This document shows, in pieces, positions 5,075 through 9,986 of a stretch of DNA of 64,000 nt (position 1 is the first letter of the stretch; the number at the start of each line of letters is the position of its first letter). Both the position numbers and the translations under genes were made by a program. The stretch lies in the NCBI GenBank assembly GCA_036676985.1, contig JAKFBU010000039.1, forward strand, positions 1-64,000. Reading direction: 5' to 3'. The notes under the pieces were generated by a model that had not been told where the DNA came from, made no database searches, and saw nothing but the letters and a program-made list of their open reading frames with translations. The stretch comes from Candidatus Sericytochromatia bacterium (GTDB taxonomy: Bacteria > Cyanobacteriota > Sericytochromatia > S15B-MN24 > UBA4093).

Positions 5075-5125
5075 CGATTGTTAAATGTAGGGTCTGCGTT
5101 TTAACAACGCGGGCCCCCTGTTTTT
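5075..5125 (+). promoter_or_regulatory. candidate cis-regulatory RNA switch in the infA 5' leader
   Basis: Hairpin GGGTCTGCGTT-TTAAC-AACGCGGGCCC (5090-5116) followed by CCTGTTTTT; competing stem TTGTTAAA (5078-5085)/TTTAACAA (5100-5107); homologous copy at 9945-9986. Confidence 0.55.
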
Positions 5126-5134
5126 AGGAGCTTC

Positions 5135-5353
5135 ATGAAAGAAGAGTCGATCGAGCTCGAGGGAACGATTCAGGAGGCACTCTCCAACGGCATGTTTCGG
5201 GTCCTGCTCGACAACAATGCAGTCGTCCTAGGTCACCTGGCCGGCAAGATGCGCAAGTTCCGCATCAAGGTCCTGCAAGGCGATCGCGTCAAAATCGAAC
5301 TGTCCCCGTATGACCTGACCCGCGGTCGCATCAGCTTCCGCAAGCGGGCCTAA
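5135..5353 (+). CDS. infA: translation initiation factor IF-1
   Basis: 72 aa; [22 protein letters not shown]...[38 protein letters not shown]. Confidence 0.97.
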
Positions 5354-5378
5354 GGCCCTATCCAGAGGAGGAACTCCC

Positions 5379-5690
5379 TTGCCCACGTTCACCGAACAGA
5401 CGATCACCTGCGTCGACTGCGGCACCAACTTCCCGTTCACGGTCGCTGACCAGGAATTCTTCGCCGAGAAGGGCTTCAACAACCCGCCTCGCCGCTGCAA
5501 GCCCTGCCGCGTGGCCGCCAAGGCCAACCGCGAGGGTGGCAGCAGCTACGGCGGCGGCCGCAGCTCGAGCTTCGGCGCGACCCGCGAGATGCACGACGTG
5601 ACCTGCAGCAGCTGCGGCACGGCGACCCAGGTCCCCTTCAAGCCCAACGGCAGCAAGCCCGTCTACTGCCGCGATTGCTTCCGGCGGTAA
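5379..5690 (+). CDS. zinc-ribbon protein (zf-trcl-like plus CxxC-x17-CxxC domain)
   Basis: TCVDCG..F.FT..DQEFF.EKGF.N.P.RC.PCR, a Gly/Ser linker, then TCSSCG...VPFKPNGSKPVYCRDCF; TTG start after GGAGG. Confidence 0.88.
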   Translation: MPTFTEQTITCVDCGTNFPFTVADQEFFAEKGFNNPPRRCKPCRVAAKANREGGSSYGGGRSSSFGATREMHDVTCSSCGTATQVPFKPNGSKPVYCRDCFRR

Positions 5691-5692
5691 GC

Positions 5693-5959
5693 GTGGGGAA
5701 GAACAATACCAAGGCCGAAAAGGCCAAGCGTAACCTCGCCTACGCCCAGGCGCACAAGAAGCGGGCCAAGCCCGTTCGGCGGTTCGGCCGGCCCACGCCG
5801 GCCCCTTCCGCCGACGCCTCCCCGGCCCCGGCCGGAGCGCGTCCCATGTTTCCTGCGGTCTGCAGCACCTGCGGCAAGGAAACCACCGTGCCGTTCGAGC
5901 CCACCTCGGGCAAGCCGGTGCAGTGCCGGGACTGCTTCCAGCCCAAGCCTCGCTTGTAG
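5693..5959 (+). CDS. basic N-terminus plus CxxC-x17-CxxC domain protein
   Basis: GTG 2 nt after the upstream stop; Lys/Arg-rich N-terminus; MFPAVCSTCGKETTVPFEPTSGKPVQCRDCF. Confidence 0.8.
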   Translation: MGKNNTKAEKAKRNLAYAQAHKKRAKPVRRFGRPTPAPSADASPAPAGARPMFPAVCSTCGKETTVPFEPTSGKPVQCRDCFQPKPRL

Positions 5960-8078: not shown

Positions 8079-8176
8079 ATCGACTTCCTGACTCCCTGAA
8101 GCAGGGCAACGGCAAAGGTTTGAGGGATGCCTGAATGCTCCATATGATACACCATCCGGTCCCCAGCCAGGAAACA

Positions 8177-8207
8177 AGACGGCCGGGGGCAATGCCCCCG
8201 GCCGTCT
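8177..8207 (-). terminator. terminator hairpin downstream of the DEAD-box helicase
   Basis: AGACGGCCGGGGGC-AAT-GCCCCCGGCCGTCT with a T-rich tail on the minus strand. Confidence 0.75.
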
Positions 8208-8218
8208 CCGGAATCAAC

Positions 8219-9886
8219 CTACTGGGCGTCCGCCTGGGTGACGAACCACTTGCGCCCCCGATCGTCGACCGCGCCGTTGAGCTGCTTCATGACGTGGTCG
8301 GCCACGTCGCTCCGCACGTCCACCAGCGAGTAGCGGGGCTGCAAGGTGATCGAGCCGATGGCGTCGCCCTTGATCTTGGCGCGATCGCAGATCATGCGCA
8401 CCAGGTAGCCGGGCACCATCCGGTCCGCCTTGCCCACGCTGAACCGCAGCCGGCACATGCCCGTCTCCTGCGACTTGGGCGTCCGCTCGCGCCCCACGCC
8501 GCGCGCGGGCTTCTCGCGCACCGGACGCTCCGGCGCCTCCATGGACATGGCCCTGGGAACGGCGATCTCGTAGCCGCCCGCCAGGCGGCCGGTGGAGCCC
8601 TCCACGTCCTGCAACAGGGCCGTCACGACGGCCGTCGGATCCAGGTTCTCGAGCAGCTCCCGGGCGAACTCGCCCAGGTCTCCGAACTCGGCGGCGTCGA
8701 TCCGGTACACCATGTCCTCGAAGAAGACCTGGCGCAGGCGCTTCTTGACCTCTTCGGCCTGGGGAATGGGCCGGAAGTCCGCCGTGAGCTTGGCGTCGCG
8801 CATGAGGCCGCGCACCTTGGGGCGATCGGCGGGCGTCACCAGGTTGAGGACGAGGCCCTCGTGGCCCGCCCGGCCCGTGCGGCCCGAGCGGTGGATGTAG
8901 GTCTCGACCCCGCGCGGGATGTCGTAGTTGAAGACGTGGGTGATGCCGCGGACGTCGATGCCGCGGGCCGCCACGTCGGTCGCGACGAGGAGCGTGATCT
9001 GGTGGCGCCGAAAGGACTCGAGGGTCGCCGAGCGGGTGGCCTGGGGCAGGTTGCCGTTGAGGTAGCCCACCTTGAAGCCCTCGTCCGAGAGCTTGCGCCA
9101 CAGGTCCTCGGTGTCCGCCTTGGTGTGGCAGAAGACCATGGCGAGCGGCGGACGCTCGGTGTGCAGGAGGTTGACCATGGCCTCGTACTTGGAGTCCTTG
9201 TGGACCTCGTAGAAGGCGTGCGTGAGGGTCGTCGAGGCCTCCATGCCCTTGCTCAGCTTGAGGCGCTCGGGGTTGCGCAGGGCCGCGCGGGCGATGCGCT
9301 CGATCTCCTCGGAGAGGGTCGCCGAGAACATGACGGTCTGGCGATCGCTCGGCAGCGCCTTCATGAGCTTCTCGAGGTCCTCCTGGAAGCCCATGTCGAG
9401 GATCTCGTCGGCCTCGTCCAGGACAAAGGTCTCGACGCCGGACAGGTCCAGGCTGCCCCGGTCCATGTGGTCGAGCAGGCGGCCGGGGGTGCCCACGACG
9501 ACCTGCACGCCCTGCCGGAGGCCGCGCAGCTGGTCGCCGTAGGGCATGCCGCCCGTGAGGGTGACGACCTTGAGGCCCTGGCTGCGGCCGAGCTTGGCGT
9601 AGACGGCCGCGACCTGGTTGGCGAGCTCGCGGGTGGGGGCGACGACCAGCACCTTCACGCCCCGCGCGTCCGGGCTCAGGTAGTGCAGGGTCGGCAGCGC
9701 GAAGGCGAGGGTCTTGCCCGAGCCGGTGCGGGACTGGACCATCAGGTCCCGTCCGTTGAGGACGAGCGGGATGGCGCTGGCCTGCACGTCGGTGGGCTGG
9801 GCGAAGCCCAGGGCGGTGAGGCTCTCCACCAGCTCGGGACGCAGCCCGAGATCGGCGAAGGAGGAAGGCGAATTCGTCGTTACCAT
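8219..9886 (-). CDS. deaD: DEAD-box RNA helicase with a C-terminal DbpA-type RNA-binding domain (DeaD/CsdA-like)
   Basis: Q motif, SRTGSGKT, PTRELA, TPGR, DEAD, SAT, ARGID and HRSGRTGRAG; C-terminal RLRFSVGKAD...IGSITL domain. Confidence 0.92.
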   Translation of the reverse strand: MVTTNSPSSFADLGLRPELVESLTALGFAQPTDVQASAIPLVLNGRDLMVQSRTGSGKTLAFALPTLHYLSPDARGVKVLVVAPTRELANQVAAVYAKLGRSQGLKVVTLTGGMPYGDQLRGLRQGVQVVVGTPGRLLDHMDRGSLDLSGVETFVLDEADEILDMGFQEDLEKLMKALPSDRQTVMFSATLSEEIERIARAALRNPERLKLSKGMEASTTLTHAFYEVHKDSKYEAMVNLLHTERPPLAMVFCHTKADTEDLWRKLSDEGFKVGYLNGNLPQATRSATLESFRRHQITLLVATDVAARGIDVRGITHVFNYDIPRGVETYIHRSGRTGRAGHEGLVLNLVTPADRPKVRGLMRDAKLTADFRPIPQAEEVKKRLRQVFFEDMVYRIDAAEFGDLGEFARELLENLDPTAVVTALLQDVEGSTGRLAGGYEIAVPRAMSMEAPERPVREKPARGVGRERTPKSQETGMCRLRFSVGKADRMVPGYLVRMICDRAKIKGDAIGSITLQPRYSLVDVRSDVADHVMKQLNGAVDDRGRKWFVTQADAQ

Positions 9887-9944
9887 GGGAAAATCCTTTG
9901 ATGAGGCCCGCTCGGGGCTCGGCTAACCGGTCTGTCACGCGAAA

Positions 9945-9986
9945 GGGCCCACGCTGCCAAAGCGTAGACCCCGACTACTTCAACAG
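9945..9986 (-). promoter_or_regulatory. second copy of the candidate leader RNA switch (deaD 5' UTR)
   Basis: Minus strand reads CTGTTGAAGTAGTCG-GGGTCTACGCT-TTGGC-AGCGTGGGCCC, matching the infA leader hairpin with two compensatory changes. Confidence 0.55.

Follow-up and report, generated by a model that had tools for sequence, protein, structure and literature searches.

In this study, we analysed a 64,000-nucleotide (nt) stretch of DNA from a Candidatus Sericytochromatia bacterium (contig JAKFBU010000039.1, hereafter the window), in which one RNA hairpin, here called P2, lies in the leaders of two transcription units: an operon that begins with an infA paralog and continues with small zinc-ribbon genes, and, on the other strand, a DEAD-box RNA helicase gene. 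The genome as a whole (G000) comprises 4,676,872 bases with 67.3% G+C, against 45-59% for the hairpin motif. Both motif-bearing genes are divergent from their upstream neighbours, and the hairpins therefore do not terminate upstream genes. The two hairpins and the genes that follow them are:

5090-5116, + strand: P2 of the infA leader, GGGTCTGCGTT-TTAAC-AACGCGGGCCC, G+C-rich, 11 bp, loop UUAAC
5126-5130, + strand: Shine-Dalgarno sequence AGGAG of the infA paralog, with the ATG at 5135
5135-5353, + strand: infA paralog, IF-1 of 72 amino acids (Pfam eIF-1a, E 4.6e-23)
5379-5690, + strand: zinc-ribbon gene 1 (Pfam zf_Tbcl, E 4e-17; zf_Tbcl_2, E 7.2e-19)
5693-5959, + strand: zinc-ribbon gene 2, with a basic N-terminus (Pfam zf_Tbcl_2, E 3e-16); its GTG start was picked by homology (orthologues begin MGKNNTKAEK)
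5972-6214, + strand: small fourth gene of the infA operon, a CxxC protein of 80 amino acids with KSCPKCSKK
8219-9886, - strand: DEAD-box RNA helicase (Pfam DEAD, 1.4e-50; Helicase_C, 5.1e-33; DbpA, 2.1e-16)
9945-9971, - strand: P2 of the helicase leader, GGGTCTACGCT-TTGGC-AGCGTGGGCCC, 11 bp, loop UUGGC; 49.7 bits with covariance model R2 (see below)

A first-pass annotation of this DNA had described two 27-nt hairpins, and the description holds in detail: each has 11 pairs with T.G at stem positions 4 and 6, and the copies differ on both sides of the stem at position 7 (G-C against A-T) and at position 10 (T-A against C-G). The tail it placed behind the infA hairpin (CCTGTTTTT), followed by the AGGAG ribosome-binding site (RBS) and the ATG at 5135, is likewise present. 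The helicase copy lies 58 nt ahead of the helicase ATG, and RNAfold places P2 in the minimum-free-energy structure of both leaders.

Next, we determined how specific the motif is. A degenerate pattern of both copies gave two matches in the window (0.00 expected from 100 shuffles), and a looser pattern found only these two sites in the whole genome, with none for the reversed-pattern control. As the first-pass annotation had proposed, covariance models were then searched against related genomes. The first model, built from eight copies and searched in 61 relatives, found five copies beyond its training set:

G001, same genus: leader of the orthologous helicase
G004 and G007: leader of a zinc-ribbon-plus-helicase operon
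G010, another family: leader of two zinc-ribbon genes
G002: leader of two tandem helicases

The hairpin and a T-rich tail are also kept in the infA-paralog leaders of five genomes of the same family (G002, G005, G008, G004 and G007) and of G018, and the upstream segment TTGTTAAA is kept in those of the same-family five, though not in G018. Model R2, built from 13 copies, was run over every genome of the order (27) and of the class (47) and over 151 from the phylum. Thirteen copies were identified by the covariance models; two further sites, flagged weakly (12 and 8.9 bits) and carrying an insertion of about 95 nt, were recognised by reading the sequence. This gives 15 copies in 9 of the 47 genomes of the class, in three families of one order and with one or two copies per genome; in the order, class and phylum sets, R2 found no copies outside these nine genomes. 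Every one of the 15 stands in a leader, and the gene behind it is an infA paralog, a zf_Tbcl zinc-ribbon gene or a DEAD-box helicase gene. The model searches thus agree with the earlier proposal of a leader-specific element shared by the infA-paralog/zinc-ribbon operon and DEAD-box helicase genes. A dispersed repeat of the REP or HIP1 kind was rejected, as there are two copies in G000 and one or two per relative, all of them in leaders. Seven weaker model hits (five in the first list, plus G006 and G081) were inspected and turned out to be gene-end or generic terminators, while a sixth weak hit of the first model fell on the G007 infA copy itself, read on the opposite strand.

Three further surveys were made. 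For 29 relatives, the sequence ahead of the best-matching helicase was read by eye, and none showed the motif directly upstream; the G001 locus in that reading had too little upstream sequence, and the model search later found its copy. Among 80 loci with zinc-ribbon homologues, the motif occurred in the Sericytochromatia locus only. A metagenome scan with the IF1 paralog returned one close relative, taken up below; the other 79 loci were distant IF1 genes, with no hit to the motif. In the tandem-helicase leaders of G005 and G008, both P2 arms are kept with about 95 nt between them (L082:672-780 and L083:667-772); the insert is conserved between the two genomes and predicted to fold, and these leaders gave no Rfam match at E<=1.

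The alignments show that P2 is maintained as a paired structure. In the model-fitted alignment, pairing holds in 94.3% of 140 cells, two-sided changes affect 4 of the 11 pairs, and the covariation score was reached by none of 500 shuffles. An independent MAFFT alignment of 12 copies gave 93.0% pairing, three two-sided pairs and again 0/500 shuffles. At the two wobble positions, U.G, U-A or C-G are seen and A-C never; since a U.G pair would turn into a C-A mismatch on the opposite strand, what is constrained is the sense RNA and not the DNA. The predicted stability of the 13 copies lies between -10 and -20 kcal/mol (free energy at 37 °C, dG37). The loops differ between copies (UUAAC, UUGGC, UUGAC, UUUACCC, CGGAUU, plus the 95-nt insert), leaving the stem as the constant part, and between 18 and about 70 nt separate P2 from the start codon.

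Further features surrounding the two hairpins are a predicted promoter for each leader, a 5'-proximal hairpin (P1) and U-rich tails:

4999-5027, + strand: predicted infA promoter, -35 TTTACG (4999-5004), 17-nt spacer, TGn-extended -10 TACAAT (5022-5027)
5042-5064, + strand: P1 of the infA-type leader, 7 pairs with one bulge (RNAfold)
5117-5125, + strand: U-rich tail of the infA P2, CCUGUUUUU, listed by the terminator scan
9942-9944, - strand: short U run (UUU) after the helicase P2, weaker than in other copies, with 4 T in 8
10022-10051, - strand: predicted helicase promoter, -35 TTTACG (10051-10046), TGn-extended -10 TACAGT (10027-10022)

In order to judge the tails across all copies, we required at least 5 T in an 8-nt window beginning 0-2 nt past the stem. 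This holds for 13/15 copies, compared to 0.86% of genome positions. The first-pass annotation had left the choice between an attenuator, a thermosensor and a protein-bound switch; the terminator-like tail favours the attenuator. P1 is kept in six infA-type leaders, with two-sided changes at 2 of its 7 pairs (RNAalifold).

The promoters of the two leaders are alike (TTTACG, 17-18 nt, TGn-TACA(A/G)T) and align with each other, and the helicase promoter recurs in the same-genus relative G001. In a consensus scan, the infA promoter matched 9/12 consensus positions with TG ahead of the -10 element, and transcription is predicted to start near 5034. A promoter of the CTTTAC...TGnTAnnnT type precedes all other motif copies, and the predicted consensus-type promoters lie 60-70 nt upstream of P2. 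The strict pattern CTTTAC-N13-15-TGnTAnnnT occurs four times in G000 (C1:85373, C6:78949, C59:6 and C64:48733), always immediately ahead of a tRNA gene. The two leaders thus carry the consensus promoter type of the organism, and the presence of promoters of the kind used by tRNA genes fits a control after initiation.

Assembled metatranscriptome contigs from RNA libraries, in which RNA starts and ends are not visible, bear on transcription of the infA leader. Contigs from three studies, differing from the window at 0-2 positions, span 5049-5384, 5059-5300 and 5094-5304, others lie over 5252-5471 and 5733-5920, and there is almost no contig depth over the flanks 4600-4987 and 6152-7121. None of the contigs matching P2 and infA extends upstream of 5049. 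As they cross the hairpin into the gene, the infA hairpin is transcribed and read through. Contigs placed on the helicase gene differ from it at 3-6 positions over 45-60 nt; their source is probably other organisms, and they are uninformative on its expression. The earlier assumption that both hairpins lie inside transcripts is accordingly supported for infA, with the helicase contigs uninformative.

Upstream of P2, both leaders of the window carry a short A/U-rich element:

5078-5085, + strand: upstream element of the infA leader, UUGUUAAA (TTGTTAAA at the DNA level)
9978-9986, - strand: upstream element of the helicase leader, CUGUUGAAG (CTGTTGAAG at 9986-9978)

This element is kept in 11/12 aligned copies and allows a competing fold, P-alt. 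In the infA leader, UUGUUAAA and the spacer 5086-5089 can pair with 5095-5107; in the nascent RNA, UUGUUAAAUGUAG pairs with CUGCG-U-UUUAACAA (dG37 -8.5 kcal/mol), and this fold keeps the lowest free energy up to the point where 24 of the 27 P2 nucleotides are out. P-alt is the nascent minimum-free-energy fold at the expected place in 11/13 copies, and a competitor of another build forms in the G002 helicase copy (dG37 from -7.5 to -10.9 kcal/mol). Energies were modelled at 37, 25 and 10 °C: in a crude direct-path model, passing from P-alt to P2 means crossing a barrier of 10-13 kcal/mol at 37 °C and of 3-6 kcal/mol more at 10 °C, which makes a temperature- or chaperone-sensitive kinetic choice between the two folds plausible. 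The mutually exclusive upstream pairing suggested previously is thus compatible with the leaders, longer than described and predicted as the nascent fold, but it shows no covariation beyond composition (see below).

Comparison with known RNA families placed the element outside all of them. Scans with the Rfam 15 covariance models at gathering score returned a single match in the whole window, a Mn2+ riboswitch at 30349-30486, and at E<=10 the interval 4700-10300 gave nine weak matches, none of which overlaps either hairpin; this agrees with the first-pass annotation, which had not recognised an Rfam family. With regard to a possible autoregulatory rRNA mimic of the ribosomal-protein-leader type, no partial rRNA match was found in 4700-10300 by cmscan, and no assembled 23S rRNA in G000, G002, G004, G007, G008 or G010. 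A literature search found no description of this motif.

What the data show is the motif itself, folded as P2, confined to these leaders and followed by a terminator-like tail. It is very probably a functional cis-regulatory leader RNA, in which the P2 hairpin is probably the shared switch of the infA-paralog, zinc-ribbon and helicase genes. More specifically, we tentatively read it, with a little less than an even chance, as a transcription attenuator for RNA-remodelling, cold-shock-like genes; that P2 terminates transcription, what P-alt does and which signal is sensed are what we infer. According to this attenuator reading, a strong consensus-type promoter would drive each leader and control would be exerted after initiation. 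About 45-55 nt into the transcript, P2 and its U-rich tail would take the form of an intrinsic terminator. The A/U-rich upstream element (UUGUUAAA or UUGUUGAAG) would pair as the RNA emerges; its partners in P-alt would be the loop of P2 and what flanks it on both sides, namely the 3' portion of the 5' arm and the opening nucleotides of the 3' arm. Should P-alt persist, P2 would not form and the polymerase would read through into the genes; should it resolve into the much more stable P2, transcription would stop early. The balance of the two folds would report how easily RNA refolds, which the cold makes harder, and the IF1-like OB-fold protein, the zinc-ribbon proteins and the helicases, by easing refolding, would close a negative feedback loop.

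In a stronger and, in our view, unlikely version, the leader would sense the foldability of RNA kinetically, without a protein, and act on termination. Here the weak first hairpin would trap the nascent RNA, in the cold or under chaperone shortage the trap would outlast the polymerase, and the regulated proteins would resolve it and so shut off their own synthesis. If true, termination would be the output of a natural RNA thermometer or chaperone-meter, which would also define the cold-shock regulon of a CspA-less lineage; according to a 2016 abstract (PMC4914106), the RNA thermometers known at that time all act on translation initiation.

Several observations weigh against the attenuator reading. 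The covariation of P-alt does not exceed what composition yields (90.4% paired compared to 89.9% in shuffles, 247/500 of which reach the score), because all changes are A-to-G opposite U, and in two tests shuffles of the upstream segment did as well or better in a fraction of 0.05-0.52 and 0.002-0.85, respectively. The helicase leader of G002 forms a differently built competitor instead of P-alt, G018 has no competing fold (barrier 1.5 kcal/mol), and in the helicase leaders of G005 and G008 the insertion of about 95 nt parts the P2 arms. With respect to termination, the helicase copies of the window and of G002 fall short of the 5-T threshold, four non-U bases stand between stem and U run in the infA copy, and the RNA contigs, which cannot show ends, show read-through only. 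The stem sequence and the two wobble positions are kept across otherwise unrelated leaders, and such a stem could be read by a protein. Lastly, the distribution is patchy: the conservation in orthologous leaders expected from the first-pass annotation is not universal, as the orthologous helicase leaders of genus g3, G016 and G022 lack the element, and a metagenome relative of the IF-1 paralog (86% identity) has a short leader without the motif.

The main rival to the attenuator takes up the conserved stem and sees P2 as a recognition, stability or processing element, controlling mRNA life-time or translation, possibly by autoregulation. Candidate readers would be the helicase with its DbpA-type RNA-binding domain, a zinc-ribbon protein, the IF1 paralog or a ribonuclease, with the tail as a single-stranded landing site of the S1/Hfq type. 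In its favour, the stem GGGUCU.CG/CG.GGGCCC with its wobble positions is common to otherwise unlike leaders whose loops vary; the U tails of helicase copies are weak, and in the helicase leaders of G002, G005 and G008 a CUUCC-GUUU-GGAAG segment after P2 can hide the RBS. Yet three to four pairs covary, so that pairing outweighs base identity there, the spacing of 18 to about 70 nt between P2 and the start codon does not fit direct RBS occlusion, and a U-rich tail directly after the stem in 13/15 copies corresponds to a requirement of terminators. We regard this recognition or ribonuclease explanation as a real possibility, if on balance a doubtful one.

Three other explanations fit the data worse than the attenuator and its main rival. 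Direct temperature sensing acting on translation, with folds that change RBS access as in the cspA 5' untranslated region (UTR), would suit a cold-shock-like gene set in a genome without a CSD gene, two mutually exclusive folds are possible, and the infA RBS, 10 nt past P2, could pair weakly with CCUG. We consider it improbable, though, given that in most copies no fold involves the RBS, the start codon follows at no constant distance, P2 (-10 to -20 kcal/mol) is too stable for physiological melting, and neither the Rfam cspA family nor any other matches. A remnant without a function of its own, left by a duplicated terminator or due to chance similarity, could account for the resemblance of the stem to ordinary cyanobacterial terminators, such as GGGTCTGCG...CGCAGACCC with a T run at a gene end in G081. 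Conservation together with the flanking element in three families and three gene contexts, covariation, and the presence of one or two copies per genome in leaders only make this very improbable. The inverted repeats could also be DNA operators at which a dimeric transcription factor blocks initiation or elongation, as TTGTTAAA...TTTAACAA and the P2 arms are inverted repeats of the DNA, 45-80 bp downstream of the promoters. But T.G is tolerated and A-C is not, and the symmetry therefore exists only as sense-strand RNA; moreover, the P2 positions covary without a fixed half-site and RNA contigs cross the site, which leaves the operator extremely improbable.

The gene set behind the element resembles cold-shock genes of other bacteria. 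In E. coli, cold shock raises IF1 by a factor of 3 or more (PMC6511841), and CsdA/DeaD is a cold-shock helicase (PMC8190605); by its domains, the window helicase is of the CsdA/DbpA group, with a C-terminal DbpA RNA-binding domain. A gene with a CSD domain (CspA family) was not found in G000, while the same search finds one in 10/14 control genomes. We infer the cold-shock label of the gene set from these associations. In order to learn more about the zinc-ribbon genes, a crudely chosen set of 141 neighbouring open reading frames from 80 zinc-ribbon loci of other phyla was scanned. A fatty-acid desaturase gene follows in 11 of these loci, mostly from Eremiobacterota, and an IF-1 gene precedes in three; a CSD gene and an RRM gene each neighbour the zinc-ribbon gene in 1/80 loci. 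In Eremiobacterota (L093, L094, L096 and others: 1290-1510), the zinc-ribbon gene and the desaturase gene following it stand behind a leader that is long and conserved and whose GCGAGTC... is able to pair around the RBS (GGAGATTCGC). This appears to be a different, candidate cold-type leader.

Within the nine genomes and their relatives, gene order adds further detail. Zinc-ribbon gene 1 is kept downstream of infA in relatives, and the CxxC gene at 5972-6214, for which no Pfam match was found, is kept as the fourth gene of the operon in G002, G005, G008 and G007. In genus g9 (G016:C154, G022:C22; L037, L041, L009 and L010), the helicase orthologue is followed by infA in one operon with a short leader, which, at the level of gene neighbourhood, is independent evidence that the two work jointly. 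Three IF-1 genes are present in G000: the window copy, C14:44758-44970 and C70:16088-16297. The C14 gene has the usual LPNAMFRV motif and the window paralog LSNGMFRV, and neither the C14 nor the C70 copy lies in a ribosomal-protein operon.

Around the helicase, a KAS III (FabH-like) gene at 6954-8192 (- strand) lies directly downstream on the same strand and may be co-transcribed with it, linking RNA remodelling to fatty-acid initiation. Divergent from the helicase, 10066-10494 (+ strand) encodes an RF-1-domain protein (ArfB-like peptidyl-tRNA hydrolase), whose ATG is 14 nt from the helicase -35 element. The Mn2+ riboswitch mentioned above (yybP-ykoY, RF00080, - strand) just passes its gathering score, with 45.9 bits against 45.

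The Sericytochromatia, an uncultured group, are related to cyanobacteria but non-photosynthetic, and their gene regulation is almost wholly unstudied. The motif delineates a small co-regulated set consisting of an extra IF1, three small zinc-ribbon/CxxC proteins and DEAD-box helicases, and it places the treble-clef zinc-ribbon proteins, so far poorly understood, in a functional context. As the genome lacks a CspA-type protein, the motif-linked genes may substitute for the classical cold-shock machinery. With a length of about 50 nt and discrete parts (P-alt, P2 and U tail), the element can be tested without culturing, and if termination responds directly to temperature or RNA-chaperone activity, it would represent a new mode of sensing by a leader RNA.

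Among known systems, one comparison is with crhR of Synechocystis, an autoregulated gene. It encodes a DEAD-box helicase induced by cold and redox changes (PMC8190605). Both cases concern a helicase of the cyanobacterial lineage under post-transcriptional control. They differ in that the window helicase is of the DbpA/CsdA type and that CrhR-type helicases, according to PMC8190605, were not found in Sericytochromatia; the same paper describes no shared leader motif and does not contain the words 'leader' and 'UTR'. The 5' UTR of cspA, a cold thermosensor whose fold is chosen during RNA synthesis (PMC9947658), is comparable in that it, too, precedes a gene of the cold-shock type and has two possible folds. 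It acts on translation and measures about 160 nt, whereas the motif described here comprises about 50 nt, has a terminator-like end and gave no Rfam match.

Csp-dependent antitermination at terminators of the E. coli metY-nusA-infB and pnp region was reportedly described by Bae et al. in 2000. As in our proposal, terminators there precede cold-induced translation and RNA genes, and read-through is set by RNA-chaperone activity. The lineage studied here has no CSD protein, there is no sequence relation, and the logic proposed is the opposite, with chaperones favouring the terminator because they would release the RNA from a kinetic trap. Compared to the terminator/antiterminator attenuators of the trp and pyr type and to riboswitch platforms, the leaders have no leader-peptide open reading frame, no aptamer-sized domain (about 55 nt precede P2) and no Rfam match, the antiterminator is without covariation, and the proposed signal is RNA refolding capacity or temperature. 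What they share with these classical systems is a terminator-like hairpin with a U tail, close to a predicted promoter and before the first gene, and an upstream segment able to form a hairpin that excludes part of the terminator. The element is a previously undescribed RNA motif of narrow distribution that resembles a classical attenuator.

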